In this document: positions 12,836 to 41,452 of the stretch, in pieces
Layout of the letters: each line of letters begins with the position of its first letter
Position numbering within the stretch: position 1 is the first letter of the stretch
Source: Catajapyx aquilonaris
Lineage: Eukaryota
Assembly: GCA_000934665.2 (NCBI GenBank)
Contig: JYFJ02001216.1
Location: 1 to 64,000, forward strand
Length of the DNA: 64,000 bases
Reading direction: 5' to 3'
Program-made: the position numbers and the translations under genes
Notes under the pieces: generated by a model
What the model saw: the letters and a program-made list of their open reading frames with translations, nothing else
The model's database searches: none
Told to the model about the DNA's origin: nothing

Positions 12836-14456
12836 ATGAAATACTTCGCAGTCCTTCTCCTTGTCGGCCTTGCCGTCGGTACGTCCCCCGTTTAAAAAAA
12901 CAAAAGTCACGACCATGCTCATGTACCTGTTTCTAATTGACCCACAGCCACCCCTGAGGTCACCGATGACTTCCTGAACGAGCATGCCGGCAAGTTCCTG
13001 ACAGTGAAGCGCACCACCTCCGACAAGGATGACGCCTACGTGAACCTCGATGCCGTCGGTACGTCTTCATTGCACGAATTATGGTCAGTACCCGTATAAA
13101 CCCACGTTCTGTTTTTTAATTTCCAGAGCTGGTCCGAAGCCTTGGCTTCTGCTCCCGCAACCACAAGATGATCGGCGTGGACACCATCGGACCATGCCTG
13201 ACCAGCTACTTCAAGCACAGCCAGGCAGCACCCAGGATGATGCAGAGCTTGCTGAAGAAGGTACACGATTTGCACATATTTTTATGAGGATCAGTTGCGC
13301 TGAATCCAATATTGGGGCTATTTCAGCAACTGGGCGCTGGCAAGGATGTCGAAGTCAAGGTTGACATCGTCGATGACGGCAGCGTGACCAAGGACGGACA
13401 GACCATCACCTGGAATGCCAAGGGAACCATCGCCGTGAACGGCAAGTCTTTCCCTTACGACAGGCAGGGACAGGCCCATTTCGGTAAGGGAAGCGTCACC
13501 GCCGTCGAGGATATCACCTCCAAGGGTGACAGCTACTCATACGGAGCCGCCACCAACGTTCATGTAAGTATTCGCCTGGTTTATACTATAGGATGTTAAC
13601 TATGCCGACGACACCTGCAGGTTGACTTCAACGCAGTCAAGGACTCGTCTGGCAACGTGGCCGTCGAGGCCGTCGTCAGCGGCAACAACGAGGGAGGCGT
13701 GAGCATCACGACCTCAGATGGCTCCAACATCCTCGCCGAGCATCTTGGACAGCTGACCATCCACGCTCACGCTGGAGCAGCCAAGAAGGACAACGTCGTC
13801 TACGTCGTCACCGAGGCCGCCGTGTCCTCCACCAACGGAGACGCCGTCCACACCAAGAAGTCCGATGGAACCATCACCCACGTCCACTCTTCCTCTTCCG
13901 GGGGACTCGATGTCATTGAGGGCGTCAACATCACTCTGGCCAACCCCGTCGATGTAAGTCCTGTCAATGACGATAACTGGCTGGTATGTAATTGTTGTGT
14001 GATTATTTAAAGGTGTCTGCTGCTGCCTTGTTCGCTGGCCGTAGTGCCCACATCGCCGACAAGCCCGACTTCCGCTCTGCCACCGAGGGTGGTGCCAGGT
14101 CCACCGCCAAGATCACCCCAGCAGGAGCTGGCAAGATCTCCATCGCCGGTCACGATGAGGTTGGCACCAAGACTGAGGTCAGCGACTACCAGGACAACGT
14201 GCTCGCCACCATCGAAGCCGGAGCCGAGAGCGACAACACCTTCAACATCGCCGTCGACCTGAACGCCAAGACCCTGAACGTGGAGAGCAGCAGCAAGTTC
14301 GACGGCAAGGTCGTGGTCACCCCAGCCTCCGGATCCGCCGTCACCGTCACCGACGAGGGCACCCTCACCGGAAGCCTCTCCGCCAAGCTCGACAGCGCCA
14401 CCTCCGGAAGCGGACACGCCGAGCAGCACCTCGACGTCACTGTCCACACTGCCTAA
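12836..14456 (+). CDS. Family A gene A6, 433 aa, 6 exons
   Basis: Exons 12836-12878, 12948-13058, 13127-13260, 13327-13563, 13621-13953, 14013-14456 (1302 nt). The first three exon lengths (43/111/134) equal those of A1. CCACCATG start and strong C-ending codon bias. Confidence 0.9.
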
Positions 14457-16777: not shown

Positions 16778-18820
16778 CTAAAACACAGGCCAACACTGGC
16801 TCAACACACCTGATGTCAAGAGTTCGGCAAAGAAACCCACGAGACTCATGCCCCAAGAAAAAACAAAGAGGAAATAGAGAGCACCGCTCAGCTGACTAAA
16901 GTTGAGGGCCATCGACCTTAGGTACAATAGGTCCTTCTTTCGAGCATCTCTTATTCCCATGGTCAGGCAGGCATACTCGAAGGCTCTCCGGAACTTCTCG
17001 TGTACACCGGACTCTCTGACGTACTTGAGCATCCGGCTCATGATCGGGAATATCAGGCTGTGCTTCTCGGTCAGGATAGAACCGGTCACAATTACGTCTC
17101 TTTCCTGTGCAAATTTTGTGGGCAGATTACCCGCCTTGTCCGCAAACTGATAACAACCGGCCACCAGGATGTCGTAAGTGACAATGCAGCAGTGGTCGGA
17201 GTTGATGGCCTCGAGAACACACATGTTGAGGTCCACATGATCCGTCATTTCCCTGGCAGCAGATGCGAAGTACTCCAGTCCCAGGAGAGCACTGTGGGCG
17301 TAAGGTTTGAAGAATCCTATCGTCCCCCAACTCCACCTGGGCCAATCCTGGTGCTCCCTGTATGTCTCCGGGAGTTCCTCCATCAAGGGAGAGGTCAGGA
17401 AGCCGAAGTAGAGGGCCTCGTACCCACAGATGATGACCAGGGATAAGGCCCACCAGAAGGAGATGAATATTCGGGGTAGTTGGGTGGAGGGGACCAGGTT
17501 CGGGTTCTCTTCGATCAGGGTGGAGGAGAGGTACCTCAGGGAGTACAGGAGGAGGCGGGGGAAGGACCAGGGGCGGCCAGGGAAGGGGGGGAGGGGACTC
17601 CACTTCAAGAGGAGGGCGAGGACTGCGCTGCCTAAGACTACGGAGACCATCACCATCGCCCACATGTCCGGAGTGTACGGTCGGAGCATCGCGTTCCAGG
17701 TGTAGCTCACTCGAGGGGCCCTGGTTACGAACGTGATGGTGGCAAACGCATGGGGAAAACTAATGTCGACCACCAGGGACATGCGATCTTTATTCAATGT
17801 TATTCCGAACACTGCTTTTCTTCGGAGGATGACTCCTGTTGCTCCGGTGTAGTTTCCGTCTGGCAGAGGAACATCCGGTATCACCCCGTCTTCCCCCTCG
17901 GGGGATTCCAAGACCCAGTCGTAATTCATGGCCTGGCTGATGGGCAGGAGGTCCATCATCTCTGGGAACATGGGCAAGTTGTTTTCAAAGAAATACTGAA
18001 GCTCGTTTTTGCTCAGGTCCAACAAGAATGATCCGTTGAGAAATCGGTTGTGCAGATTCCGGGAATAGTCCGGGAAGATATCCAGTCCGGACGGAGTCAC
18101 TTGTCCTCTTCCGGGGTCGAACCATCCCCTCGTGACCACCCCGGGATGACCCCCCTTGCAAAAGTGGCAGTTGGAGAGCAGCCCGACCATCCCTGGATGA
18201 CCTCCCTGGACCCCAGAGGAGGTGTCCACCCCCGCCAGGAAGAGGAACCTCTCCGTGACCCCGTGCAGCATGACCTCCTCCAGCCCCCTCCCTCCCCCCT
18301 CGCTGACCCACACAACGAACTTGTCCCTTCCCGTCTGGATGGAGACCAGTCTGGCCACCTGCTCCACCAGTGACCTCGGGTCATGGTGGTGGTCGGATGA
18401 TGATGGTGACCCGAAGAGCAAGAGCAGGTACACCGCGCACTTGTGCTCCACCGCACCAGGTCTGTGCAACCAAGAGAACCAGTACTCGAACTGACCTGAG
18501 TTGACCTGGTGTGACCCCCTCTTCTGCCGGGTCACGGTGGTGGTGGTGACGGGCAGCACTGGGGTCACCCCCACCCGGTGTATCCTCCTGATGAACCCGG
18601 ATAGTTCAGGCCCGTTGAACCTTCTTCCTTGGTCCGTGGCAGGCACCAAAAGGCAAGAAGGGTACATCCGGCTGACCAAATGGACAAACTCAGTCACTCG
18701 AAACAACTCACTGTCCTCTGGTGATCTAAGGTCAAGGGTGACCTTCCCCTCTCCACCCTTCCCCACTACCAGCGCCCACAAGACGAGCAGCATGAGGACT
18801 GGCAACGAATATGACTCCAT
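16778..18820 (-). CDS. Divergent ionotropic receptor (IR, variant iGluR chemoreceptor), 680 aa, intronless
   Basis: Signal peptide; S1 region GNYTGATGVILRRKAVFGI...VDISFPH...TFVTRAP; pre-M1/M1 LRPYTPDMW; RIFISFWW...GYEALYFGFLT (equivalent of SYTANLAAFLT); S2 ...ESGV; last TM LNFSQLSGALYFL...FFAEL. Confidence 0.9.
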   Translation of the reverse strand: MESYSLPVLMLLVLWALVVGKGGEGKVTLDLRSPEDSELFRVTEFVHLVSRMYPSCLLVPATDQGRRFNGPELSGFIRRIHRVGVTPVLPVTTTTVTRQKRGSHQVNSGQFEYWFSWLHRPGAVEHKCAVYLLLLFGSPSSSDHHHDPRSLVEQVARLVSIQTGRDKFVVWVSEGGGRGLEEVMLHGVTERFLFLAGVDTSSGVQGGHPGMVGLLSNCHFCKGGHPGVVTRGWFDPGRGQVTPSGLDIFPDYSRNLHNRFLNGSFLLDLSKNELQYFFENNLPMFPEMMDLLPISQAMNYDWVLESPEGEDGVIPDVPLPDGNYTGATGVILRRKAVFGITLNKDRMSLVVDISFPHAFATITFVTRAPRVSYTWNAMLRPYTPDMWAMVMVSVVLGSAVLALLLKWSPLPPFPGRPWSFPRLLLYSLRYLSSTLIEENPNLVPSTQLPRIFISFWWALSLVIICGYEALYFGFLTSPLMEELPETYREHQDWPRWSWGTIGFFKPYAHSALLGLEYFASAAREMTDHVDLNMCVLEAINSDHCCIVTYDILVAGCYQFADKAGNLPTKFAQERDVIVTGSILTEKHSLIFPIMSRMLKYVRESGVHEKFRRAFEYACLTMGIRDARKKDLLYLRSMALNFSQLSGALYFLFVFSWGMSLVGFFAELLTSGVLSQCWPVF

Positions 18821-19243
18821 CGTGACTAGTCCTCGCCGGGTCTTATAGTAGCCTTTTTATGCCCTTCGCCGAATAAAATCTGGCCGTCAATTTTGCCCTT
18901 CCAATGCCATAACTTGCGTCCATTTTAAGCCCACGGTTGGAATGAAACATTTTCTGGAACCATAAAAATTGCTCCCTCAATCTGGCAAGTATCTTACCAA
19001 GTGACCTAATTGCTAATCGCCAACTTTTGTCGTTGCAATAGTAGCAAATTACACCTTAGGCCCCACCAGCTACTAGCGTCACTCTCTTGTCGGCACATGT
19101 ATGTCAAATGTCACTAATAATGACATTAAATGATGCCTTTTGATCTCATTTTGGGCATTATTGCTGCTGCTCTTCAAGCAATTCAGAGCGATTTGGTTGT
19201 TGTTGCCACATAGAATGTCAGCAAGCTACCATTAAGTTATGTA

Positions 19244-22357: not shown

Positions 22358-22845
22358 CAAATCCTATATTGTTATAGCCAGGAAAATAGCCTTGTTTGGG
22401 CGTTTATGAACCGGAGACAGTTTGTCCAAAATTCATGATTTTTTTAAAAAATGGGGTCCGTCCCGCTGTAAGACCAGACCAGGCCATGTAAATCTCAGAC
22501 CTCCAGCCTTACTGACCCAGTCCCGAGTTACAAGGGGCTCGTGTGTAGAGTAACGAGGGGGTTAGTGTAAAGGAAGGGGCAGTGCGGGTGGGTGGGAGGA
22601 GACTTGGTAGTGGTAAAGTCCGCCGGTATCTCACCAGCCCCGATTTATTTCAAGAGTGTTTGCTATTTCACACATCATCATTTCCTCTGATTGCGAGTCA
22701 CACGGTTCGTAATGTACCCGCCAGGACTGGAACGATGAGAGAGCAATAAAAAAGTGCAGATCTGTAGACAAGAAATGAAATAAAAGTCGGTGCCGTCCGT
22801 CAGCACTTCGGAGTTTTGATACGTGCCTGATCTGTCCACGTAACC

Positions 22846-24482
22846 ATGAAATACTTCGCAGTCCTTCTCCTTGTCGGCCTTGCCGTCGGTACGTCCCCCG
22901 TTAACAAAACAAAAGTCACGACCATGCTCATGTACCTGTTTCTAATTGACCCACAGCCACCACTGAGGTCACCGATGACTTCCTGAACGAGCATGCCGGC
23001 AAGTTCCTGACAGTGAAGCGAACCACCTCCGACAAGGATGACGCCTACGTGAACCTCGATGCCGTCGGTACGCCTTTATTGCACGAATTATGGTCAGTAC
23101 CCGTATAAACCCACGTTCTGCTTTTAAATTTCCAGAGCTGGTCCGAAGCCTTGGCTTCTGCTCCCGCAACCACAAGATGGTCGGCTTGGACACCATCGGA
23201 CCATGCCTGACCAGCTACTTCAAGCACAGCCAGGCAGCACCCAGGATGATGCAGAGCTTGCTGAAGAAGGTACACGATTTGCACATATTTTTATGAGGAT
23301 CAGTTGCGCTGAATCCAATATTGGGGCTATTTCAGCAACTTGGCGTTGGAAAGGATGTCGAAGTCAAGGTTGACATCGTCGATGACAGCAGCGTGACCAG
23401 GGACGGACAGACCATCAGCTGGAATGCCAGGGGAACCATCGTCGTGAACGGCCAGACTGTCCCTTACCACAGGACGGGACAGGTTCATTTCGGTAAGGGA
23501 AGCGTCACCGCCATCGAGGATATCTCCTCCAAAGGTGGCAACTACCAGTTCTCAGCCGCCGCCAACGTTCATGTAAGTATTCGCCTGGATTATACTATAG
23601 GATGTTAACTATGCCGACGACACCTGCAGGTTGACTTCAACGCAGTCAAGGACCAGTCTGGCAACGAGACCGTCGAGGTCGTCGTCAGCGGCAACAACGA
23701 GGCTGGCTTGAGCATCACGACCTCAGACGGCTCCAACTTCCTCGCCGAGTATCTTGGACAGCTGACCATACACGCTCACTCTGGAGCCGCCGAGAAGGAC
23801 TACGTCGTCTCCGTCGCAACCGAGGCCGCCGTGTCCTCCGCCAACGGATACTCAGTCCACACCAAGAAGTCCGATGGAACCATCACCCACGTCCACTCTT
23901 CCTCTTCCGCGGGACTCGATGTCATTGAGCACGTCAGCGTCACTCAGTCCAACCGGTATAACCCCGTCGTCTATGTAAGTCCTGTCAATGACGTTAACTG
24001 GCTGGTATGTACGATAATTGTTGTGTGATTATTTAAAGGTGGAAGCTGGTGCCTCGTTCGCTGGCCGTGGTGCCCACATCTCCGACAAGCCCGACTACCG
24101 CTCCGCCACCCAGGGTGGTGCCACGTCCAGCGTCAAGATCACCCCAGCAACAGTTTGCAAGTACTCCATCGCCGGTCACGATACGGTTGGCAGCAGGACT
24201 GTGCTTAGCGACTACCAGGACAACGTGCTCGCCACCGTCAACGCCGGAGTCGCTAGCGACGACACCTTCAACATCGCCGTCGACCTGAAAGCCAAGACCC
24301 TGAACGTGGAGAGCAGCAGCAAGTTCGACGGCGCGGTCGGGGTCACCCCAGCCTCCGGATCCGCCGTCAACGTCAACTACGATGGCACCCTCACCGGAAG
24401 CCTCTCCGTCAAGCTCGACAGCGCCACCTCCGGAAGCGGACACGCCGAGCAGCACCTTGACGTCACTCTCCACACTGCCTAA
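22846..24482 (+). CDS. Family A gene A8 (recent duplicate of A6), 6 exons
   Basis: Signal peptide MKYFAVLLLVGLAVA and intron positions identical to A6. All exons are open; ends GHAEQHLDVTLHTA. Confidence 0.9.
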
Positions 24483-24695: not shown

Positions 24696-25376
24696 TCCAA
24701 GAAGAGTAATAATACCGACAACGTGATATTGACGTCAAACAATATATTGTCGCAACCAATATTGAGAAAATAATGAGGGTACTTGACACAAAAATTATTG
24801 TCGGAAAAAACTCAATATTCAGCCTCGTTTCATTAATATACAATATATTGGAATTGATCGAAGAATATGCCATTTCATACGTCACGAATACAGCTTACGA
24901 CACGTTCATTGCCTCAAAAGATGCCTGCCCCATCTACAGTTAGAATTAAAATCGCATAAAAATGAACTGGACAATGTAGCTTACGTGTTAGGATATTTTG
25001 TACCTTGTAGATGTGAAGCGAAAGATAACAAATGGCGCTTCCATACATAAAGGTGTCTATTCTTGTTTGTACATAATCTACCACCCATTCCAAAGGAACA
25101 AGTTTGTAGATACCACGATATTTCCCTCGTCCCTATCACACTTCGCAGTAAACATAATAGAAAAAAATCCTCTCACGCACTTTCCAGATACATAAGCACT
25201 GTTTCAAGCTAAGGCATAGATTTCGTCAACAATGCTATCCATTCTCTCCATTCTTCCATGTCAACAAATGGGGCCTAATATCACTGGGCCAGATACTTCT
25301 GTTGGACGCGCATTGTCTCGTACTGCTTGTATAAATAAGTGGCCTGTCCGTCTCGACAACAGCAAATTGCTCCAGC

Positions 25377-25931
25377 ATGAGCTCCAGACTGTTTCTGATG
25401 GCCTCCATCACCTTGGCTGTGATGACCACTCCTGCACTCTCACACACAAAGTCTTCCGAGCCACTCGCCAGGCTCAGCAAGTGCTATGGCCGCATGGCCA
25501 ACGCAGTGGAGATCAGCCTCAAGGAGAATAAGCCAGGGATCCTCTGCTGGTCAGTATAAAATGTACAACATAACAATAATATACAAGTGTAAATAATGCT
25601 ACCTATCCAGGCAGTTGACTCTTATCGATATTTATTATTGCTAAACAATTATTGCATTTTCATGGGCAGTGCTGTTAAACCGTTCATAAAATGCGTGGGG
25701 AGGATTGGAGGAATAGGAGCAAGAGACGGAGCTTCTGCACACAGATACTACGACCGCCTATTGGTAAGTCTCACTGGCATCAGCTGCTGCATATTAATTA
25801 TTTTTTCTGAATAGATGATTGTCATTGTGACCAATTCAAAATATGCTTTTTGCCTATATTTTCAGGGTGCTTGCTACATTCTTATGTGGTACATGCCAAT
25901 ACCTTGCCTCCTCCCAGAGGAAACATCGTGA
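25377..25931 (+). CDS. Family B gene B1: small secreted Cys-bonded helical protein, 3 exons
   Basis: TATAAATA at 25330; exons 25377-25549, 25670-25763, 25866-25931. Protein MSSRLFLMASITLAVMTTPALS...KCY..ILCC|AVKPFIKC..AHRYYDRLL|GACY..PC..*. Confidence 0.85.
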
Positions 25932-26571
25932 CGTTTTAAATAAAATAATTGTACATTATACGTACTCAACTTCGTTTGTTATTGCATTAGTATAATGCAA
26001 CGGACACCTAAGAAGGGATACACATTGCACCATGCAGTAATATACTGCATGCAAAGTGTCAATGTTTCAAGTTTGACAATGGTTTAGGCCCACGGGGGGG
26101 TTGCACAGCCCCAATTAATCTTCAATAATTACACACAATTGCTTATGTGAAATTAAATGTGACGCACCTGAGGAGTAAAATTATTCACATGTTTTCAGAA
26201 GGAAAATCACACGGTTCAAGTGATAGCATATTGAAGTTCATGTATGTTTTATTATTAAGTGTTTCTTTCAGAGTGTGCCAACAATGCTTTCTCATAAAAT
26301 TAATTAGTCAGAATGAGCGATTTCATTCAGCTTTTCAGTTGCATTACAATGCAGAAATTTTAAATCATTGCCATTATTTTAATGCCAATAAATGATTCCC
26401 CCCTTTTTTGGCTGATACTGTGCTGTAAGGGTGTATTTCACAATCTGACAAACACTGTCACTACCCTATGATAACGTAATATTATTGATAAGACAAGGTG
26501 CGAAATGGAGTGATCCGTCAGCCACTTATTGGTTTGCTTGACATGTGCGTCGATTCTATCGAGCCGCAACA

Positions 26572-28113
26572 ATGGAGTTATTGCTAGTCCTTCTCTTCGT
26601 GGCCCTTGCTGCTGGTATGCTAGTAATTTTCTTCTGGTTAGCAATGTTACCAAGTCCCTTTTAATCCTCAGCTTCACCGATTCAGTCCGTCATAAACGAT
26701 GACATATTGAACGAGCATGCACACAACTTCATGTCCGTCAGACGCACCGTCATCGACAAGAACGACGCCTTCGACAATCTCGACGCCCTCGGTATGTCTC
26801 GCAAATTACGTTTGCAACAAACTCACTGTAAATGGTTGCAGAGCTGGTTCGCAGCTTGGCGTTTTGCTCGCGAAATGGCGTCGAGAGAGTCGGTCCTTGC
26901 ATGGCTGTCAACTTTCGCGAAGGCAAGGCTGCACCCAGGATGATGAACCGCTTCGTTCAGAAGGTGGCCATACCACAATTATTATGCAATCTTCATACAC
27001 TAATTTATTAAAGCATGCAATTATTGTAGACCTTGAATAGCTCTGGCCTGAACATCACACTGTACTTCGATTTTGTGGAGGACGGCACCATAAGATGCGA
27101 AGGACAAGACTACACCTGGATCTTCGATGGGAATGCTTCGTACGCCGGAACCTCCCTTCCATACCAACGAAAAGGTAGCTTTCACGGGGTCTCAGGAAGC
27201 TGGACATTTTCTGAAGGAATCACATCCTCCGGTGACCACTACCAGGCCGACATGTCTTATTCGGTGCACGTGGATTTGGGACTGCCAAAGGACAATAACC
27301 CTGTTCATGGAGATGTAATAATATCGGTGAGCCTGTACGGCAGGTTGACATTCCAGTCAGATGACGGATCCATCACAGACTCTGAACGCATCGGTCAGGG
27401 CACGGCATACCTCAAGATTAAGAGCATTCAGACGGGCAGCCTGGTCACCTTCACCGTTCCAACCACGGCGTCGTCCACCGTCGAGGACGTCGTCACCATC
27501 CAATCTGCAGACGGATCAATCATCAGGACATTTGGAGACTCCACGACCTACGGAGGTGACATCCTGGAAGTGCTTAACGTCACTCTCACCCATGACGGAC
27601 TCGTACATGTACGACACAAATGTACTCACTTTCCCGGAGCAATTATGTAACGTGCTGTAATTCCAGGTGTCATCGGAGGCAACCTTCGAATCCCTCGCAG
27701 CCCACATGGCCGACCAGCCCGATGTCCGTTATTCCTCCAAGGGGTCAGCCAGGTCTGCAGCCAGCCTGACTCTTGCCCCCGGAAAGATGTCCGTCGCAGG
27801 TCACAACGAGCTGGAAATGAAGACTGACCTGAGTGATTACCAGGACACCTTGCTGCTCGTCACAGTGACTAAAGCCGAGTCTGACAACCAAGTTTGCTTG
27901 ACCGTCGAGGGTGATGCCGATAAGTCCGCTGACCTGGAGGTCAAGGTCAACTTCAGCGGAAAGACTGTGGCCATCCCGGAGAACGGATCTGGAACAGTCA
28001 CCGTCGCCAATAACGGCACCTTCACAGGCACAGTCACGGCCAAAGACAACGGTGACAACACAGCCCAAGGACACACTGAACAACACCTCAAAGTCAACAT
28101 ACAGCAATACTAA
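26572..28113 (+). CDS. Family A gene A9, 5 exons
   Basis: MELLLVLLFVALAA; NDDILNEH; ELVRSLAFCSRN..C; TW/YQRKG; SDYQD; ends GHTEQHLKVNIQQY, followed by AATAAA. Confidence 0.87.
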
Positions 28114-28343
28114 AGCGGTGCAATTTTGAGCAATAAAATGTGACATACAGCAATTGAATATTGCGCACTAATTTATCTAAACAGCGCATCACTTTGTATT
28201 ATTTTTCATCCTGGAATATACGCAACCCACAAGCCCATACAGTAAGTCATGTATTTTCAAGGTGATATTGGACACGTATAAATGAAGATAAGAATGAAGA
28301 TAAAAGTTTGTCGGATGATCCATTTTGATTAATTCACTCAGCC

Positions 28344-29966
28344 ATGAAGTTGTTAGCAGTCCTTCTATTGTCCTGCTTCTCAATAGGTGATTATTATTAT
28401 TATTAATAATAAAAAATAATTAATTAATTAATTTTTTGATTTTATTTCCCGAGCTTCCCCGCTGCTGTCACTAAATGACGACATACTGAACGATCATGCT
28501 CACAACTTCTTGTCGTTCCGGAGTAAGCATACGGTCAACGAGGTCTTTGACAACATAGAAGCCACAGGTAAGTTGCATAAACTGTGTTTACGATTCTTGC
28601 AATGAAAGCCATGTTCGATTGTTGCAGAACTGGTTCGCAGCTTGACGTTTTGCTCTCGAAATAATGTGGATACCATCGGACCATGCATGGCCACCAACTT
28701 CAGGGAAGGCAAGGCTGCACCCAGGATGATGAACCGATTCGTTCAGAAAGTGCGACACATCAATGCCGTACTTGATACACATCACTATAAACGCATTCAT
28801 ATATTTCAGGCTTTGAAGAAAGTTGGTCAGAACATAACAGTACAGATCGACCTTTCGGAGGACGGCACCATTAAGCCATACCACGGGCCAGACGGAGACG
28901 GCCATACCTGGACCTTCCGAGGTACCGCTTCGTGCGATGGACAAACAGTGTCATACCTGAGAGAAGGCAGTTTTATCAACTACTTAGGCAGCCAATTCCT
29001 GGAGAAAATAAGTTCATCCGGCGACGACTATCGAGCCAACACTTCTTACGCGGTACATGTAAGTACTACATATAGTACACAGCGTACACATTCAGGAGTT
29101 AAAATGCAATCCGATAAACCAGGTGGGCTGCGGATCGGTTCCAAACACGACAGTTGTTTCGTTCGAGTGCATGGTCAGTGTGAACATGTACGCAGTCCTG
29201 CGCACCAGGAACGTCGACGCAGACTACGTCGGACTGGCCATACTTTACGCGAAGATTCGTGGAGTCAATGATGGACACACGGCGCACATGACGACTCCAA
29301 CTACTGTGTCGTACACTGCCGAAGACACAGTCACCATCAGTGAATCAGACGGGTCCGTGAAGCATTTTGGTGAATCCGTGTCTGAAGGATCAAACATTGA
29401 GGCTGAATTGAATGTCACGCAGACGGAGAGTTTAGTACAGGTAATATAAAGGCCAAATATTAATTTAGATATTTTAATTTTGCATATGAATGAGCCTATT
29501 GCCATATATTTTTCGGAATAATTTGTAGATATCAACTTCCGGAGACATCACAGCACTTGCCACTCACTTTTCTGACCATCCCGACTACCGCTATGATTCG
29601 AGTGGGTCAGTATGGTCAACAGCCAGCGTGACCCTCGACAACGGAAAGGTCATGGTCACGGGCCAAGAAGCAACTTACCTGAGAGAGACTATCAGCGACT
29701 ACGAAGGCAACCTTCTGGCCACTGTCCAGTCCGACACTGAGTCTGTCGCCACCATTGACGTGGTCACCGACAACAGATCTACCGACCTCAAAGGCAGTGG
29801 TCATTTCAGCTCTAGCGTCAAGGCCACGTGCAAGGACGGTCAAGCTGTTTCCGACAGTGAGGACCAAGGCACCTTCACAGGCACCGTCACGCTTACAAAC
29901 AACGACGACGGAACCATGTCAGGACACTCTGAGCTGCATCTCACAGTGAATGTCCACAAAGAATGA
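28344..29966 (+). CDS. Family A gene A10, 6 exons
   Basis: MKLLAVLLLSCFSI; NDDILNDH; ELVRSLTFCSRN..C; TW/YLREG; extra intron after AVH as in A6/A8; SDYEG; ends GHSELHLTVNVHKE. Confidence 0.85.
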
Positions 29967-30470
29967 AAAAAAAACAATATTGTATTGACAACACAATGAG
30001 TGTGTTCATTGAATTTGGTATGATCTGCTTATTCAAGATTACAATGCAAGATTGGTTTAAATGAGAATAAAACATTTGCAGTGTAATAATGTGCAATTTG
30101 TTTATGTTTTGTACCATTATGACAGCATCAAGGCTGATTTTATGCTGCATTTGTGCAACAATAATAATCGAGTGCAACAAATAATTATCACTGCGTACAT
30201 CTGGCGTACATAATAAAACGGGAGCTATACGTAACGCAATACACTGGATGCACTTGCACATATAAAATTAACGAACTTTCAGCCGAATTTAGCAACAATC
30301 AGTCTCTATTATTCCATTGTCGCTATTCATTGCTCGATTTGCTATCAGGACAAAAATTAGCACATTCTCCTGAGTTATGACAAGGTCCGACACCAAGGAT
30401 CTTGCAGGACTATATGTATAAAAGTCCTAAAAATAATTTAGAGTTACTCTGACGAGCTTCATCGGGCAAC

Positions 30471-31001
30471 ATGTATTCCGCAAAGCTTCTCCTGGTTGTC
30501 GCCGCGATTCTGTCATCTTCACGGGCCTCTATGGAGCAGCATCCGCAGATAAAGAAGTGCTACGCCCTGGTGACATCAGCCGTCGAGGACAGCATACACC
30601 AGAACAAGCCAGATCTTATGTGCTGGTCAGTATGTCCCCCCCAAAAAATATTTTTCGGACAAACGTATCCTCGAGAGGCAAAATTTTTGCTCTTTTGTTT
30701 TTGCTATTTCTATTTTCAATTTATTGCCAAGGAGAGAGAATGACATGCTCATTTTGCAGTTCCTTGGAGCGTTTCAAAACATGCGTGGAAGAAGTGGACT
30801 ACGTGGAACCGGATGAACTTGAACCTGCTCATAGATACTACGATCGCCTCTTGGTACGTAACTGTACTGAGAAGTAACGCACATCTAATTTTATCAAATC
30901 GCTTGCAGCTAACAATGACTACTGTTTCTGCATTCACAGGGCGCTTGCTACATATTCACATGGTTCATGCAAATGCCATGTTTCCTCCCGGATCACATTG
31001 A
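30471..31001 (+). CDS. Family B gene B2, paralog of B1, 3 exons
   Basis: TATAAAAG at 30417. Protein MYSAKLLLVVAAILSSSRA..KKCY..LMCC|SLERFKTC..AHRYYDRLL|GACYIHMVHANAMFPPGSH*. Confidence 0.85.
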
Positions 31002-32191
31002 AACTGCCTAATAAACTTTGATTGTAATAATAAAACTTCTATCAGCGAAAATTTGGGTTTGTCCATTTACTTCCGATCCTGACTCCTGTAGCAACTATGG
31101 CGAGGATATATCTTGAACGCCTATAGCGGCAGCATCCCACTGCCCATCAGCGATCTCACAAATAAATATCCGGATAAAGACAAGGGTTGTTCAAATGTGA
31201 CTGCTTAACGAGGTTTGCACAGAGAGGCTGGGCCTGTCACACTATGCTCTGAAAGGTGAACAACTTTGAAGTAAATTTCACATCAAAATGGAAATATCCA
31301 TCTATATATTTTTAAAGGACTCGAGGACTATTTCAGATAACAAAGGAGCACTGCAGGCCATCAACACGAGCAATATTTATTATATATTTATTACTCATGC
31401 AAGACTTGAATAAATGCATCGGAACCTACTCATAGGTTATGTGCAGGTTATGAACATGTGTGTTGGACATTCTGAGGATGGTCGTACAGTACCGTACATG
31501 AAAATTATCCACGTTCAAGATAAGGGAAGGATTAATAGTTTTTCGCTTATCAAAAATGTTATAAATTTCCCGTGTGTGACTATGTTGGTGAATGAAGAAT
31601 ATTTTTTTATACTCTTATCACACTAGTTACATTCATTCTCTTAATTATATGCGCCATAGTCGTAACCAATAACCTAAGAGTGGTGCATGTTACAGGGTGG
31701 TTTTCATAAATAAAAGTAATATTCTGAGCTATTATTAGGATATCAATGATAATAGGATATCAATGATAATGATAATGATGATTATTAAGATATAACTGTC
31801 AAGGTTCGCAAATATTCTGCTGCATACTTGATTTGGATGAACCACAAAATACGGCAAAGATTTTTAACGGCTCAGTTAATTTCAATTATTTTGCAGATAT
31901 CTTGCACTAGTACCTATAGCAATAATATTGTTGAAAATTTCCATTCGATTACTTTTAAAAATTTATAAACGTAATATGATTGGATGGCGCCGGGTTAGGC
32001 TCCTACCGTTATCATCAGGTGTCACCACTGCTGGAGATAAGCAACCTTTCAACATGTACACACCCTGATAAGGCGAAAAAAAACACTGTGGCCAGGAGAA
32101 ACTGGCGTCGTACTCTGCATTGTTCGGAAAGCCAAGGCTAATATTTTATAACAAGTTATGTGTTTGGCGTAACAAGGAATTTGGGACCATA

Positions 32192-33637
32192 ATGGCAAGA
32201 ACGTCCTTCATTCTGGTTCTCACGATTATGACAGCGGGTAAGTGCAGCAAAAAATATGACTTCAATGCAATCATGAAGTAGTTGTAAGATAATGACTTGG
32301 CGGCAGTCGTATAGTCATAACAATGGTCTAAGTATGTTATATTTGTCGGCCATTTTCTCTAATCGGAAATGAAGTTGGATTATGTGCCAGAAGTGACGTC
32401 ACATCTGATGGCTGCCTGCAAGATTTCTTTTCGGCTGTCGAATCCGTCACAGATGACAACAATGACGTAAATAATCTGGAGGTCATCTGCCCGTAAGTAT
32501 GCTCATATTGACTCAGTATTATTATGGGTGCATACACAAACAATATTGTGTTCAGAGCAGCTGAAGCTTTGCAACAATGCGTCAGAGGAAGTAATGTCGA
32601 CGTGGATTTGACATTGCCTGAAGATGTCCAGATTCATTTTGAAGATGCCTTGGTATGCAAGATGTGACTCATGATTGACAGCTGCAGTATAATTTCCAAA
32701 TAATTTCATTAACCGCCAGAGAATGTGCGGGCCATACTTCTTGCATCTACACATAAGACAACTGGTTCGACACAAGCGAGACACTCCTGATCCGTCTGAA
32801 GCATGTTTCGACACCCTGAACGTAGCGGCGCTGAACGCTTCGTGGCAAATCATCTACGGAAAAAGGCTGAGGATAATATGCCCGTCAGTCATCTTGCTTA
32901 CAACGATTTTGCTGCACATAGGTTAAATATTGTAAGTAATGCTTTTTTCTTCTTCAAAAATGCAAGGGCCATAGAGAAGTTCGACCAGTGCATCGATGAA
33001 ATACCCGATGTTGACCCAGAAATTAAGGAAGCAACTGAAGTACTCTACTACAACAGGTCCATGCCCTCTGTAAGTCAATTGACCACATTTAAATCTGTCG
33101 TTGTGTTTATATGTTTAAAAAATATATTTATAATAGTTATATGCAATAAAATATCACTTGCACACTGCAGGATGAATGCTTTCCGTACATGCCAGGACCT
33201 GAAAAGTTGTTGTCATCTCTCAAAAACAAGAACGAAAGCATATCAAAATGCTGGCCGGATTTTCGCCAAGCAACAGAAGGAGCACACAGATACTCGAATG
33301 AAGACGAGAGACAGCTGTTTTGCCGGTTAGCTCATCAACAATAGTATCCAAGACACAATGCACTTTTTATATTCCATGTTCTCCTTGTTCTCAGCGCAAT
33401 CACGAAGCTGAAGAAATGCGTTGATGCAATACCTGACGCCAACCGTGAAGCTGTAGATGTTCTGGACGACATGTACAGACATATTCAGAAGGTGGTGTAT
33501 ATCGAGTATAGTATTACTCAATAACAATACCTTTGTAACAATGACCACCGACCTTACAGAACGACTGCCAGCCTTACTGGAAGCTGAGTTCTCTTATGAA
33601 CACCCTTCGGAGAACTACTCCGCCCGAAAAGGAATAA
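32192..33637 (+). CDS. Family B gene B3: secreted protein with three tandem 4-Cys modules, 8 exons
   Basis: Signal peptide MARTSFILVLTIMTAVGLC. Modules GC..ICP|AAEALQQC..|RMCGPY, AC..ICP|AIEKFDQC..|DECFPY and KC..FCR|AITKLKKC..|NDCQPY; the phase-2/phase-0 intron pair repeats three times. Confidence 0.85.
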
Positions 33638-34434
33638 ATTATTTGCACATTTCCATTGCCCTCATCATAATAATTGCATGATGCATACTCAAATGAATTC
33701 GCGGATATGACATTGTGTCACTGTGTTCCGAAAGTGTTTGTTTGTGACACTTTTTGTCACGAAGAATTTTCAAAGTCTAAATAATTCTTGTCACATATAA
33801 TAAATGAAGCGATTTTAAAATATAATATGTACCATAATATTCAGACTTGTGACGAGTAACTATTATTCGGATTTTTTTTTCTTTCTTGGAATGGTTGTAA
33901 TGTCGTACATTAACACTTTTTCACAGCTAGAGTCTCTCATATGTGAATTATTTTGTTTAAAATTCAAATTGAAATTTTATATAGGCCATCATGCAGTACC
34001 CCCCACGACTGCAATCATTTATGGTTGCAATAACTATTATGCAGATGGGTACTTTATGGGGTTGCGATAATATTTGAATTTCTCAACTTTATGAAACAAT
34101 AAATTTGCAAATTTCCCGCGTGCCTGCAATTTGAAAATGAATTAAATCTTTCGCCGTTCTTTCACAATGGAGGAGGAGCAAGGAGGAGGATTCCGCAGAG
34201 AATGAATAGATTGCACCGAAATCTCCCTTATTGTTCCGAAACCCCATTTCTATTTGTTTAACAAATCACAAAGGCCATGCGAGGATCCCGAAAAAAGAAG
34301 GAAGGCTGCCAATGCCCCATTGTCACCAAATCTGCGATCCGAAGAGTGACGCCCGGAGGATAAACCCGGAATAAAAAGGTACGAATATTTTGAGAGCGAC
34401 TGCAGTCGTGTGGTGTCATTAGCAAGGAGTTAAC

Positions 34435-35269
34435 ATGTCTCCTTCTCGTGCCCTGCTTCTGGCCCTGGCCTTCGTCTTTCTGGCAGGTGAGGTAACTCTT
34501 TCTTACAATGCATTTGTCTCGCACTAATTATTATACCAAACTATAAACAATGCCTTCTAGCTCTAGTGTCGGTGTCAGCCAAAAAGTGTCCAAAAGATTG
34601 CTTCAAAGATGTGAAGGACAAGATACGAAAGTCGACTAAATCCAATGCGAAGGACACCGTGTGCAAGTGAGTATAATCTGGGCAATTATAACGGCTAAGA
34701 TTTATGCAGTATTGTTAATGGGGACATTACAAACTTTCACATTCAATTCGTAAAATTTTATTCACAATTTCAGCAGTTCTTTCTGCACTTTCAGTGAATG
34801 AAAATCCTTACAACTGCATGAGTAATCCCGGTTTTGCTAGTTTTTAAACTGACAGTTAACAAACAATTTGTTAACTCTCAGTGACGGTAGTTTTAGTGGC
34901 AGAACAACTGGATGCTGTAAACTGCAGTTAGCTCGTGACAGCCAATTAAACGGCTGGAGAATTCATTATAAAAAGAGGAGCCATTTAACATATGCCTAAT
35001 AATATTATTGTTGCTACTTCTCTAATTATTGTTATCCTACCATTCTATTCGCAGTGCCCCGGACGACTTCAAAAAATGCCTGAAGGATAATGGTATTCTG
35101 AACGACAAGTCCAAAAAGACTCACGAAACTCTCAAGAGGATTATTCAGGTGAGTACCCATTTAAAAAAGTTATTAGAATCGAGAGAATGTCAAATTATTA
35201 ATCCTTTTTGCTTTCTTCCAGCTACCGTGTCACTTGCTGACTCAAGGAGAAACAGGAGACGATGATTAG
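34435..35269 (+). CDS. Family B gene B4: Lys-rich small secreted protein, 4 exons
   Basis: MSPSRALLLALAFVFLA|ALVSVSAKKCPKDCFKDVKDKIRKSTKSNAKDTVCN|APDDFKKCLKDNGILNDKSKKTHETLKRIIQ|LPCHLLTQGETGDDD*; AATAAA follows. Confidence 0.82.
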
Positions 35270-36934
35270 GTTATTGATCCACGGGCCAATAAAAAAAAAT
35301 GACGCCGAATAATTATAGAATAAAATAGTCCGTCTGCATTACATCTCAGTTACTTTTTTTATCTCCAGATTATGTATGTCACCATATTTCCAGCTAATGA
35401 GAAAAAGGGAAACTCAACGGACTTTTCTTGTTATAAGGTTTAATTATGACGTTGAGTTTGACATAACATTATCAGTTACCTCTGAGAAAATAATGTTTGT
35501 AATATATTCTCATTATCTACCAGAGAAATGTTTCTTATTGATGAGAAACCTTATAATTATGCTGTTTTTAAATCGCATGTTATTGAAGCAGACGCATAGG
35601 GCTAACACCAATTATTATAATCATAAAGATTGTGTCAATTACTGCTTTTATGCAAGATGCAGGCCTATCATAATTGATAATGTATGTAATATTTTATAAA
35701 CAATCTAGTTTTTCATGATAACACTGTGTTTCATTATCGACAAAAATGAAGCAATTCAACAAAGGTTCGCTTCTTTTAAAAAACAATCTCCTTATAATTA
35801 TGTATGGAGTGAATGCTGCATTTGTTTGTATGTAACACGTAATATAACATTTCACTTTCACTTTGCATTGACTTCTACGAAATATTATTGCTACTTGAGA
35901 GAGCTGGCTGTGAAACTTGGGTGCTGTACGGATATCATCAGCCTTTATAATAATACTAGTAGCGGACTCGTTGCCAAATTTTGGCAACACTGCTTGGCCC
36001 ACCCCCCAACTTGGACGTACAGTAGATTTATACGGAGTCTCAGGGCCCCTACCAGTTGGCGCATAGGCTGTCCCTCTGCACACTACTGCCCCTCTCAAGG
36101 GGAAAGTAGTACTACATGCACGTTGGTGATGAGTCACAGCGCGGACAAAGCCCACCAGGGTGCTAATAACCAGCTCGTGTCTCGCCTGCCATTGACTTTG
36201 GGCCTACCGTATCTGACCGCTATAAATTATGCCGTCTATAATATTGTTAAAGGGGAAAGTGAAAATCTATGGTAGGCAATGAGAAGTGTTGCCGGACATA
36301 ATTTATAAGCGGAAAGAGAGGATAGGGCTTTTAGGTATATATGCATATATTATATTTTTGCTAATAATATTGTAACTCATTATTGATATTATGACGTCAG
36401 TACTCAAGGTACGATTAGGTATAGCAATAAACAAAGAAAAAGTGGTCACATTTACAATGCATTGAGTGTGTTGACCAATCGACTATTTTTGCAGGCATTT
36501 ATCAGAGTGTTACAATTGCAAATTGAAAAACAAATTATGGGGAAGAATGTGCGATTTATACCAATATTTTGCGCTAGTTTTCTTCCTGTATGTAATACTG
36601 TTAAGAAAATCCTCATCAGTTATGAGCCCCTTGCAAGCATCCAGAGTCATATATACTGAAGGACTTGGCAAAGAAGGACAAGGAGAATATGCATATACGG
36701 ACTGAAAGCGCAAATGAATTAGAGTTGCGAAATTAATTACCATTATGCAGGTGGTGTCAGCACCATCTAACCTCGTCGTGGTAAGGTCTGTGCTATAAAC
36801 ACGGTTATGACAGGAAATAAAAGCTGATAAGTGCCCGTCGTAATTAATATTTCCCTCGTTGAAAAAGGAGAGTCACTTGCAGTCATTATTTCAGAACCGC
36901 CAGACTGACTGGACCATCAGCAGGTATTATCGCA

Positions 36935-37847
36935 ATGAATAATTTGGCGCTGTTGACATTTCTTTCAGCAGGTAAGACGCACAATTTTCTTCCAAATGCA
37001 CAGTGTATAGGATTATATATAAACGTCTTTTCCACCCTCACATGCTTCTGCCCATAAACAGCATTCGCATTATCTCCCATGAATGTGACATGCCCTCTGC
37101 AAGTCTTAGACCAGATAGTGCTTATGGCAAACGAAGCTTTGAAGGACAATCAGCACTTTCCTATTGACGGAAAGGAGCTGGACGAGCACTGCAGGTATAA
37201 TAATTATTTTCCCAAAGTGTAGTATTCACACAGCCGCTTTTTTTCTTGCAAAATATTCGCAAAGTATGAACTAACCTTACATGGTTCCAGCATTTTTAAG
37301 AAGCTGTTGAGCGACGTGCAAGAACTGATGCTTCCATGCCTCCCAGGCTTCCTGAAAGTGTTTCTGCCTGACATTTTGAGTGGTGTGTTGGATGTAGAGG
37401 ATCGCATGTGCAATCCCAGCAACGGAGACTTAAGGAAAAGTATGTCTCGTTATGTACACACACAATTCTATCTCTTAAAACAATCAAGTGTTGATATTAT
37501 ACCGAATTGTTTGCAGGATATTTGCATGAGGCCGCTTGTCTGAGGGAGAAAGAAGCAAGGTTCGGGCCTTGCAGCCATCAAATGTCACGGGCTATGTACA
37601 ACGCTTCTGTAAATAGAAGCATAGGAGAATTTTGCTGGCGAGTTATTTATTACCTTTCTACATAGGTGCTATGGTTTGAACTTTAATTTTCTTTCCCTGC
37701 AGCGCAATTCCAAAGTGGAAGAAGTGCTCTGGGGACGCGGCCATGCTCTGTGGACACCAGGCCTTGTCTTTCATCAATGATTTCATCTCAAACATGGAAG
37801 GAGAGCTGATCCGTGGATTTTGCGCCGGATGTATTTGCACTGATTAG
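36935..37847 (+). CDS. Family C gene C1: secreted Cys-rich helical protein (DUF19/T20D4.11-like), 5 exons, one GC-AG intron
   Basis: MNNLALLTFLSA|AFA..TC..HFPIDGKELDEHCS|..PC..MCNP..|YLHEAAC..PC..FCC|AIPKWKKC..LCG..AxxF..FCAGCICTD*. Family label comes from the Cys/motif pattern recognised by eye. Confidence 0.8.
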
Positions 37848-38592
37848 TACCGTACTGCTACCCCATGTCACGCACAGTCACGCTGGACCCAACCCGTTCT
37901 TTTCTCACATCACAGTCTGTCACGATGTTGATGTACTATAGCTACGACCTTATAATCATAAAGAAATAATATTTGTCGCAAATAAAATGCATTATTCCTT
38001 ATTTCAAAATTTCCCAACTATACAAAAGCTCAATGACAAAAATAACAATGTGGTTATGTAGGCTAACAGATTTAAATGCTGTAGGTGCAATCATACCAGA
38101 CTTAAAGTTTACACTATACCTATTTGCATTGATATAACCGATGTGCGTAAAATACTAGGTGAAACCTATAAGTTCAAACACAGAAAAAAATACATTTTCC
38201 GACAGTACTATAAAATCCACAGTGTCATCATCATTAATGTACACATGTACGCTCCCTATAGAAGTGTCGCAAGATTTCTTCAGGGATAATGCTGTGTGAT
38301 AAGCTCCTTTCTCTAGTAGTACTTAGATATAAAAAATCGCTCTTTGTCTGAGGCTGACAATAAGATCGAAGTACTCTTATCGTTTATGAATGGAATAATT
38401 CCATCCGAATATCTAAGCAGATGTTGGGAAACCGTCAGAATAATTAGTATAATCCGACTGAACCTGAAGGCAGACGCCTTTCATTATTCAAGTGGTTCAC
38501 ATGCACTAAGTGGCTAAAGGAAGTCTTGTAGTGGCAAGGATTTTATGAAGCAACCCTGCTGTGGAGACACGGAAGATTGAACAGGACCGGAA

Positions 38593-39262
38593 ATGTCAAG
38601 GAGAATCATACTCGGCCTATTTTGTCTAGCAGCAGGTAAGCTCTCAACTTTTATAAATCTGCGATCATACCTATTTACTTTTCAACCATACAACGACTTA
38701 CTCAAACTAAGAATGGTTGCATTTCCTGTCAAGTTTTGGTGCTGGTCTCGTCCAAGAAATGCAAAAAAGCGATGCGTAACGACGCCCCGTCCAAAGACTC
38801 GCCACAAAAGGCATGCCTGCAAGCTGAGATAAATAAGCTTCTAGCTACAAAAGCCTCTAACGCAGAAGACAACGTTTGCAAGTGAGCATTTTACGACTTC
38901 TTAAAAATTCTACATTAGTAATTGTGGTGGTGATAATGTTTTTTTTTTCATTTTTAAAGTTTGGCAACTGAGTTAGAAAAGTGCCTTAATGATAAAAAAG
39001 TGTCCCCAGACAGAATCAAGGACATCATGGAGAAAGTGGATGAGTTGATTAAGGTTAGTAAACCCTTTAATACGAATACGCTCTAATTAATACAATTTTA
39101 AATATTAGTCACCGCTGTCGTTCGTTTCAGAGAACCTGCAAAATGATCAAGGATCTACAGGACAAACGCAAAGAAGAACTGAATGCTGCCGAGTCAGGTG
39201 AAGAAGGTTCAGATGAAAAAGGTTCAGATGAAGAAGGTTCAGATGAAGAAGGTTCAGATTAG
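38593..39262 (+). CDS. Family B gene B5: Lys-rich module with an acidic repeat tail, 4 exons
   Basis: MSRRIILGLFCLAA|VLVLVSSKKCKK..KAC..NVCN|LATELEKC..ELIK|RTCK...AESG-EEGSD-EKGSD-EEGSD-EEGSD*. Confidence 0.82.
39200..39259 (+). repeat. Coding 15-bp tandem repeat x4 (GAAGAAGGTTCAGAT = EEGSD)
   Basis: Seen directly at the B5 C-terminus. Confidence 0.95.
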
Positions 39263-39505: not shown

Positions 39506-39735
39506 ATGAGTGTCAAATCGGTTGTGTTGTCCCGGTGGTGTTCTCACGTCTTGCAGCAGGTAAGACTCACCAGTTTTTTTTCTTCTCCAAAATGCATTGC
39601 TTTAACGCTCCTTCTTTTCCATGCGTTTACATGCAAGCAGTAATTGAAAGTGTGAGTGTGACATGTCCTGCAGCTGCAGATGTCTTTGACCAAGTAGTTA
39701 GCATGACCAGAGATGCTTTTCGTCTGAACCTCATT
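39506..39735 (+). pseudogene. Family C pseudogene fragment (C1-like exon 1 and part of exon 2)
   Basis: Frameshifted signal exon ending LAA G|gtaag, then AVIESVSVTCPAAADVFDQVVSMTRDAF, similar to C1 NVTCPLQVLDQIVLMANEAL. It ends abruptly. Confidence 0.7.
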
Positions 39736-40008
39736 TGTCCACTGCGACTGCTAACATGCATTGTCTGTACACCTCAAATCCGCTGCAATAAAAAATGATT
39801 GAATTTAGTTTCATGATCCGCACTGTCACAATTAAACTTAGGCACATACTTACCAGCAAATTGAGTCTGATTGCCTGTCCTCGTTGAACTTGACCTCCAC
39901 CAACGAGCTGTTGTAGCACTTTTTAAACTCCTTCACTCCTACATTTGGAAATTACAACCAACCGGTCAAAATGAGGAAGAGGAATGTGGTGGTGCTGTGA
40001 AGGTCCAT
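39734..40008 (-). pseudogene. Family B pseudogene fragment on the minus strand
   Basis: MDLHSTTTFLFLILT G|(24-nt intron remnant)|VKEFKKCYNSSLVEVKFNEDRQSDSICC|GFEVYRQCMLAVAVDK*, giving the KKCY..CC|x7C pattern of B1/B2. Minus-strand TATA-like AATATAAA near 40051-40058. Confidence 0.7.
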
Positions 40009-41452
40009 GGCTGCTGCGGTGTGAAAGGACGGCCAGACACGTGCTGGCCTTTTATATTCTCGGACCTCATTGGCTCATTTGCATGCACAGCTCGAATGTG
40101 ACGTAGCAGTGTTCGATGGGAATATTCTGTCTACCTGGGCCATATTGCTGAATTCGCAATTTTACCAACGAAGGCATACTTGACATAGCATAACTGGGGA
40201 TTTGCAGTAAAACGCTACCTTATTTTTAATCAACTTGTCGTACGACTTATCTTAATTTATTGTCGGCGTAAAAGTACATAAGCTGGCGAATTGCGAGTAA
40301 ACAATGTTAATGACATTTTGCGCACTCTGCATTATTAAGCTATTTTTTTGTGCAGGGTGGTGCACTGCCAATTCCCCCATTTCATTTCGGGCGCCGGATG
40401 CATTTGCAACAATGACTTATAATATTATTCCGTTTCAGACGAAGCAAGGTACTGCTAAAATTGCGATTGTAAATAAAGTAGTATTATGAACTGAACGTCT
40501 AGATTTCAGAGTATATAGAAAATGCTGAGACTAAATGACATCTTGACATAAAGTGATCCTCTAAAAGTATGGCTTAATAAGAATTGCTTTTAAATACCAT
40601 ATATCATTTACTTACTTAATTATAGCGAGGCAGAGGACAAGTGTGGGCGTAAAAACAGGTCAAAACGCAGCAGCCACATATTACACGGGCGGTGTTGCTT
40701 TATCTTGAAGCTAGTTCCACTCATAAAATAATATTACGACGCCCGTGCATAGTTATAAAAGTTTTCTTTGGATATTAACTATACATTTCACAAGCATATA
40801 AGTTATCTGCACATCATGGACTGTGACATGCAATATCCAGAGGAAGAAGATTAACACACTATATCATGTGTGATGTAGCTACACCATCCGAAGGGGGCAG
40901 CGATCTTTAATCCTACCTAACTTAACTTGTAAGAGTGTTAAAAGTGATCACGTCTTGATAAAATGTATTGGTTCAGAAGCAGGAAATTCTAGTTGTATCG
41001 GAATGAACAACTGTTTTAAACTCAGTTTTTATCATCTATGCTAAAGAAAGTAGTAGACAATCATCATTGATGCATCGTTATTGGCTGTTTTACCGCCCTT
41101 CGATTGCGAAACTCCTTCTTGCACAACTTTTATTATAGTTACTGTAGTAGGTTCAACTGTATGATTCTGCAATAATAATCTAGACAGGTTGGCTTACATT
41201 TCATGAGTTATGATCGGCGCATCTTATGACTTGGGACGATATGCCTGAACAATGAGCTTAGTTTCCACAAATATTCTGCACATTGATTTATGAACACTGT
41301 TGTATCATATGACAAGAAAGATAAGATGTATACCAGGAAAGAGAAAAATACAGGTAGAGTGTTGCTATAAGTAAATAGTCTACTACAACCCCAAACCACC
41401 AGTCTGAAGCCTTACTTTGTGTGAGGAAAACCTATCGATTCTTCATGTTACT

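Follow-up and report, generated by a model that had tools for sequence, protein, structure and literature searches.

Small secreted proteins of Catajapyx aquilonaris probably derived from the C-terminal half of a DUF19-like domain

Among described families, the one closest to the proteins considered here is DUF19 (Pfam PF01579), which in Caenorhabditis elegans, according to the accessible part of one report, counts 51 DUF19/T20D4.11-like genes, 42 of them with a signal peptide and 14 upregulated on infection, encoding proteins of 140-220 residues (PMC3534327). Another family, DUF1397, is described in the available portion of a second report as having been recruited into the venom of scutigeromorph centipedes (PMC6878950), and for the odorant-binding protein (OBP) OBP1 of Varroa an excerpt of a third gives the disulfides C1-C6, C2-C3 and C4-C5 (PMC8222343). 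No paper on a structure, a mechanism or a half-domain of DUF19 was found in the open-access literature; subscription literature, InterPro or AlphaFold DB may describe an internal repeat. Here we analyse a window of 64,000 nucleotides (contig JYFJ02001216.1, positions 1 to 64,000) from the 286 Mb genome of Catajapyx aquilonaris, a genome with short spliceosomal introns, in which three tandem families of secreted proteins are found, namely A (beta-rich), B and C. The reading we propose, with a probability of roughly 0.72, is that the products of the five family B genes, B1 to B5, are small, secreted and mainly helical proteins with disulfide bonds, and that they derive from the C-terminal half of the two-half DUF19-like domain carried by family C. 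The gene models of family B were built by hand, with splicing inferred from sequence only:

B1, 25377-25931, plus strand: 110 residues, predicted signal peptide and one module; exons 25377-25549, 25670-25763 and 25866-25931; intron phases 2, 0.
B2, 30471-31011, plus strand: 106 residues; exons 30471-30625, 30760-30853 and 30940-31011; intron phases 2, 0.
B3, 32192-33637, plus strand: 285 residues, signal exon and three tandem four-cysteine modules; intron phases 1, 2, 0, 2, 0, 2, 0.
B4, 34435-35269, plus strand: 99 residues, signal exon and one module; intron phases 1, 2, 0.
B5, 38593-39262, plus strand: 138 residues, signal exon and one module; intron phases 1, 2, 0.

All 17 introns of these genes are GT-AG, the spliced frames are open over 99-285 residues, and each gene is followed by a polyadenylation signal (AATAAA or ATTAAA) and two of the five are preceded by a TATA box (for B1, TATA at 25330 and AATAAA at 25939). 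A hydrophobic N-terminal stretch, with a mean Kyte-Doolittle value of 2.3-3.5 over 9 residues, is present in all five proteins, and on this basis a signal peptide is predicted and B1-B5 are taken to be small secreted proteins. The first intron, in phase 1 after the signal exon, is present in B3, B4 and B5 and absent from B1 and B2. The product of B1 harbors 6 cysteines, including a CC doublet and an extra C-terminal cysteine, and has a cationic core (+5), and that of its paralog B2 has an acidic one (-7). B3 displays a furin-type RHKR motif between modules 1 and 2 (residues 104-107), three N-x-S/T sites and a cysteine at residue 19 that is probably within the signal peptide. B4 has a cationic core and a short acidic tail, and in B5 a KRK motif precedes a tail of acidic repeats; both carry one extra N-terminal cysteine, so that each mature chain has 5.

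The seven modules, one each in B1, B2, B4 and B5 and three in B3, all follow the pattern C-x20-24-C-x8-C-x25-28-C. The codon that follows the second cysteine is split by a phase-2 intron, and a phase-0 intron lies two codons ahead of the fourth cysteine; in B1 and B2 the intron-split codon is itself a cysteine, which creates the doublet and turns the middle gap of 8 into gaps of 0 and 7. Identity between modules is 10-26%, except for B1 and B2 (45%), and the core net charge ranges from -11 in module 1 of B3 to +7 in B4. The initial annotation had described the common cysteine layout and intron phases, the use of single and triple units and the very different surface charges, all of which are confirmed by the gene models; its module size of about 70 residues was too large, the core measuring 57-64 residues from cysteine to cysteine. 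A scan of the window for this signature, based on splice signals, phases and cysteine positions only, returned 12 matches on the plus strand (the seven B modules and five C-terminal halves of family C) and none on the minus strand, whereas 100 Markov controls of 64 kb gave a mean of 0.36 and a maximum of 3 matches; as the signature was written from these same genes, the scan measures rarity and common fit, not independent discovery. The same scan over 84 kb of other loci yielded 6 matches, four C-type exons and two apparent chance matches, with none of B type, and exon searches of the genome, which have low sensitivity, recovered no B-like gene on other contigs.

The identity of family C was approached through two further genes of the same genome, D1 and D2. 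In a family search of the genome one exon of D1 (locus L012) scored 26.7 bits with DUF19, above the cut-off of 23.2 bits, and used as query this exon led to D2 (loci L024/L025, G000:C881, about 50.4-55.5 kb), a DUF19-like gene with the full set of cysteines, a Ser-rich linker and a hydrophobic tail, whose product is probably anchored by glycosylphosphatidylinositol (GPI). A family C profile was built from 13 spliced C domains, leaving out the C9 and C3/C4 genes and keeping the row L2a although its exon-4 acceptor is non-canonical, and was compared with 300 shuffles in which the cysteine positions were fixed. It scored 38.5 bits against D1 and 63.3 bits against D2, its best match, and in neither case did any shuffle reach the score. 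Moreover, a phase-2 intron after cysteine slot 3 of the N-terminal half (N-half) and a phase-1 intron between the halves are common to D1, D2 and family C; D2 also shares with family C the phase-2 intron inside a split CC doublet, and D1 the phase-0 intron before slot 6. Since the profile matches both genes and each of them shares intron positions with it, family C is homologous to the DUF19-scoring genes of this genome and hence DUF19-like, and is now linked to that family. Two of five extra matches of the D1 exon (L021 and L022) displayed nothing convincing in the stretches viewed. A DUF1397 gene (PF07165) on G000:C1096 consists of two six-cysteine halves with introns in phases 2, 1, 2 placed as in family C, and its score with the family C profile, 0.6 bits, is not above the shuffles (92/300). 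Searches for homologs with the C exon-4 profile, and with the C exon-5 profile among 1.84 billion representatives, found none; searches with the D1 exon and the DUF1397 exon were also blank though both belong to known families, so that these blanks reflect the low sensitivity of short queries and not novelty.

The halves of D1, D2 and the DUF1397 gene define a six-cysteine unit that is not found entire in B. Slots 2, 3, 4 and 6 are kept in all B modules, slot 5 is absent, and slot 1 is missing from B1, B2 and modules 2-3 of B3, the extra N-terminal cysteine of B4 and B5 having a spacing unlike slot 1; the C-terminal halves of family C (C-halves) carry two cysteines more than B (slots 1 and 5). 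Slots 4 and 6 are separated by 25-28 residues in B, versus 31-34 in D1, D2 and the C-halves with both cysteines. The introns of B correspond in position to those of the DUF19-like genes of this genome: the phase-2 intron lies past slot 3 in B, D2 and C alike, the phase-0 intron precedes slot 6 in B, D1 and C, and both are found in the C-halves of the family C genes modelled at 51.5-63.6 kb. In B1 and B2 a further cysteine lies 11 residues past slot 6, as in C-halves. At the level of profiles, the C-half profile scored the B modules at 3.7-11.2 bits, and for six of the seven no more than 4 of 300 shuffles did better; conversely, the B profile reached 2.0-15.0 bits with the 13 C-halves and -1.8 to 1.5 bits with the 13 N-halves, the C-half of gene C1, which lies between B4 and B5, being among the two best (13.1 bits). 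An hhalign comparison of B gave an E value of 0.006 with the C-halves, 0.0008 when the halves of D1 and D2 were added and 0.64 with the N-half of C; none of 150 block shuffles reached the real score, and the block-reversed control likewise fell short.

Several results weigh against a relationship between B and C. The score of B4 with the C-half profile was beaten by 38 of 300 shuffles, and B5 scored equally well with the N-half profile (8.2 bits, 0/300), being the sole B module to do so. The B profile also scored the DUF1397 halves at 6.2-7.2 bits (beaten by 4-11 of 300 shuffles), the higher value belonging to the N-half. The hhalign probabilities are low, 6% for the C-halves and 25% with D1 and D2 included, and a control with a 7-residue block shift scored 19.9 against 19.3 for the real comparison; because this control ties the real score, the signal beyond the cysteines may be helical periodicity alone. 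Comparisons at the level of exons were not significant (probabilities of 0.07% and 2.5%). None of the 14 single B exons (31-57 residues) and none of the four single D2 exons matched Pfam DUF19, and one of 24 single C exons did so, with an E value of 0.1 that is below the cut-off. Given the 10-26% identity among its modules, family B may also be more than one clade. The low and tied hhalign probabilities, the exon-level results, the lack of a DUF19 match from any single B exon and the spacing between slots 4 and 6, several residues off from that of C, are what would be expected if B had no relationship to C and were a family of small, secreted helical proteins whose likeness to C reflected the cysteine spacing of disulfide-linked helices together with coincident introns. 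We consider this improbable, since it conflicts with the features that argue for a relationship, namely the two introns with equal phase and cysteine offset (a coincidence of about 1 in 1,000 by a rough hand estimate), the intron-split CC doublet and extra C-terminal (seventh) cysteine that B1 and B2 share with C-halves and D2, and the interleaving of B and C genes in one cluster; the B profile also favors C-halves over N-halves. From sequence alone, the homology is suggestive at best.

The initial annotation had assigned the C-half the same layout as B, which is correct for the positions and phases of the introns but not for the number of cysteines or the distance between slots 4 and 6. Its common minidomain is supported by the introns, four to six cysteine slots, adjacency and a weak profile preference for the C-half; on the other hand, the suggestion of an undescribed scaffold is not supported, family C being homologous to DUF19-scoring genes and DUF19 being among the folds that the annotation itself had listed for comparison. 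The comparison of hidden Markov models that it had proposed favors the C-half over the N-half, but with the low probabilities and the tied shift control described above.

If B derives from the C-half, its gene structures suggest how this may have occurred. The two exons of the N-half in family C are flanked by phase-1 introns, and most likely the loss of this exon pair joined the signal exon in frame to the C-half, which would leave the exon layout of B3, B4 and B5 (phases 1, 2, 0). The modules would also have lost slots 1 and 5 plus several residues around slot 5, and in B3 the two-exon unit between phase-0 introns would have been triplicated in frame, yielding the 2, 0, 2, 0, 2, 0 pattern. 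The cluster would thus show the likely steps by which a DUF19 domain was halved, lost one disulfide and was multiplied again. Alternatively, B and C may have a common ancestry in which B goes back to an older DUF19/DUF1397/CPG4-group gene with a single unit, and not to local loss of a C N-half. The B genes are very divergent from C, and the B profile scores the DUF1397 and D2 halves about like most C-halves. Likewise, the nearest look-alikes of the D1 half-exon in the ESM Atlas are unnamed nematode clusters of 93-116 residues, about one half in length (0.87), followed by a DUF19 cluster (0.77), which is a lead that half-size DUF19 relatives may exist elsewhere. This second origin is nevertheless quite improbable, as, within the two-half genes seen here, it is the C-halves alone that have a CC doublet, a seventh cysteine and the phase-0 intron, loss of the exon pair would leave just such a phase-1 signal intron as is present in B, B lies inside the C cluster, and the low-sensitivity exon searches revealed no B-like gene on another contig.

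Cysteines of the half-units are mostly lost in pairs, slots 2 and 4 in N-halves of C and D1 and in the C-half of C3, and slots 1 and 5 in B; the N-halves L1a and L6a, in which slot 1 is lost and slot 5 kept, are an exception that speaks against the proposal. Because of this mostly paired loss, a wiring of 1-5, 2-4 and 3-6 is predicted for the half-unit, in which case B would be left with 2-4 and 3-6, and B1 and B2 with one further pair.

Structural evidence is consistent with a helical unit. The segment after the second cysteine of the B modules has helical hydrophobic moments of 0.43-0.65, and an AlphaFold model of the contiguous D1 half-exon, with alignment rows from C exon 5 only and with the last cysteine not included, consists of three helices (predicted local distance difference test 67.6, predicted template-modelling score 0.49). 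An alignment that placed exons 4 and 5 of C together on the D1 exon was discarded, as both stacked on one half, and an ESM Atlas search with a B3 exon, which returned unnamed clusters of 49-60 residues and a Retrotrans_gag family at 15%, was judged uninformative. Sequence searches of the PDB gave no match with an E value below 0.35; with the D1 half-exon model, Foldseek gave no clear match (best E value 3.6), and VIA gave unrelated helical chains (best Z 6.1, root-mean-square deviation 5.4 over 79 residues). Since the model is middling and lacks the last cysteine, these results do not indicate a new fold.

As to function, secretion, fast divergence, tandem expansion and wide differences in charge would suit a module that acts outside the cell in binding or defence and whose surface varies, a role that we put forward tentatively; a role as lipid carrier, or as a gland or reproductive secretion, is an alternative. 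B3 may be cleaved at RHKR, the acidic tails may mask the cores of B4 and B5, and the odd cysteine of these two proteins may form covalent dimers. A bolder and unlikely reading is that the module is a self-folding two-disulfide minimal DUF19 unit of about 60 residues, turned into peptide effectors processed in these three ways. If so, it would represent a peptide scaffold of which the literature searches gave no description, and a small, producible tool for studying a widespread domain of unknown function. Lineage-specific expansions of secreted cysteine-rich proteins are, however, common in animals, which limits the interest of the cluster.

The remaining features of the window are the following:

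Family A, about 1.5-30 kb, e.g. 5627-6853, 26587-28113 and 28345-29966: about ten tandem secreted genes.
Divergent ionotropic-receptor-like gene, 16778-18856, minus strand: single open reading frame, 692 codons stop to stop.
C1, 36935-37847, plus strand: single-domain family C gene.
Degraded C1-like copy, 39507-40420: frame breaks, probable pseudogene.
C3, 41471-44529, plus strand: family C gene with a Thr-rich tail.
C5+C6, 51544-53855, plus strand: one gene with two DUF19-like domains joined via a phase-1 intron.
C7+C8, 56228-59036, plus strand: probable two-domain gene whose tail is hydrophobic and GPI-signal-like; the signal exon probably lies near 55247.
C9+C10, 60438-63620 (end approximate), plus strand: probable two-domain gene; one C9 acceptor non-canonical in the model.

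Family A proteins have a long beta-rich region, and an exon scan of the window gave no Pfam match above cut-off for their exons. The model of one family A exon, confident for residues 20-185 only, displays a long antiparallel sheet; the top Foldseek row, which is not significant, was microsomal triglyceride transfer protein (E value 0.0015, template-modelling score 0.23), and lower rows included pore-forming toxins and porins. An A gene precedes B1, and likewise B2. Within family A, two genes (12632-14456 and 22631-24482) are near-duplicates of each other, together with the DNA upstream of them. The ionotropic-receptor-like gene, which matches Lig_chan with an E value of 2e-5 that is below the cut-off, is on the strand opposite to the secreted cluster, 6.5 kb upstream of B; like the DUF1397 gene, it suggests an arthropod genome. 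The genome holds at least 26 matches to family C exons, spread over many contigs, which shows a large expansion. In C1 the phase-0 intron is absent, and the intron within the CC doublet, at the conserved phase-2 position, is of GC-AG type (37638-37702); in the C-half of C3 slots 2 and 4 are both absent. Two family C genes (about 41.5-44.5 kb and 45.9-50.4 kb) are nearly identical and represent a recent duplication; their tails are rich in Thr, and part of their intron DNA is duplicated as well. In the C paralogs at L001, L002, L006 and L007, slot 3 of the C-half is Met and a cysteine lies three residues upstream, about one helical turn.

Among known systems, B could be compared with odorant-binding-protein-like or saposin-like lipid carriers, as its products are small, secreted, helical and cysteine-rich, the ionotropic-receptor-like gene lies nearby, and the top PDB sequence match of the DUF19-half alignment was the chelicerate OBP-like protein Varroa OBP1 (PDB 7NYJ), itself small, secreted and helical with six cysteines. 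We find it very improbable that B is such a carrier, since this match (E value 0.97) consists of two short non-significant stretches. The hallmark of insect OBPs is C-x3-C, and CxxC or other close cysteine pairs are typical of the saposin-like, crustacean hyperglycaemic hormone/ion transport peptide (CHH/ITP) and chemosensory protein (CSP) families; neither C-x3-C nor CxxC occurs in the B cores, with their gaps of 20-24, 8 (0 and 7 in B1 and B2) and 25-28, and the OBP, CSP, saposin and CHH models matched none of the 14 single B exons. One of these exons matched secretoglobin/uteroglobin (PF01099) at 14.5 bits (E value 0.047), below the cut-off of 24.8, and was not retained. The cysteines of Varroa OBP1 (21, 41, 68, 111, 132 and 141 in the available part of PMC8222343) and their pairing also differ from the spacing and predicted pairing in B.

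DUF1397, the 27-kDa haemolymph protein family (PF07165), resembles C in its six-cysteine halves of similar spacing and in its introns in phases 2, 1, 2, but the gene found here has neither the CC doublet nor the phase-0 intron, so that the link consists of cysteine spacing and introns only. CPG4 (PF15481, 94 positions), a nematode cysteine-rich domain which we take to have six cysteines and to belong with DUF19, resembles B in being about as long as a half-unit; a genome search with it gave two matches (L018 and L019), both below cut-off, neither in B or C, and with nothing convincing in the stretches viewed. DUF19 itself is, like B and C, a secreted, cysteine-rich and expanded gene family, and B retains slots 2, 3, 4 and 6 of the C-half. 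The DUF19 domain comprises two halves and spans about 150 residues, whereas the B genes encode a single half-unit or, in B3, three C-half-type units in tandem; B also lacks slots 1 and 5, has a shorter distance between slots 4 and 6, and does not reach the Pfam model with single exons. As the six-cysteine half-unit and the two-half domain are both missing, we regard B as a DUF19-derived variant, a local variation on a known family, and not as a member of DUF19.

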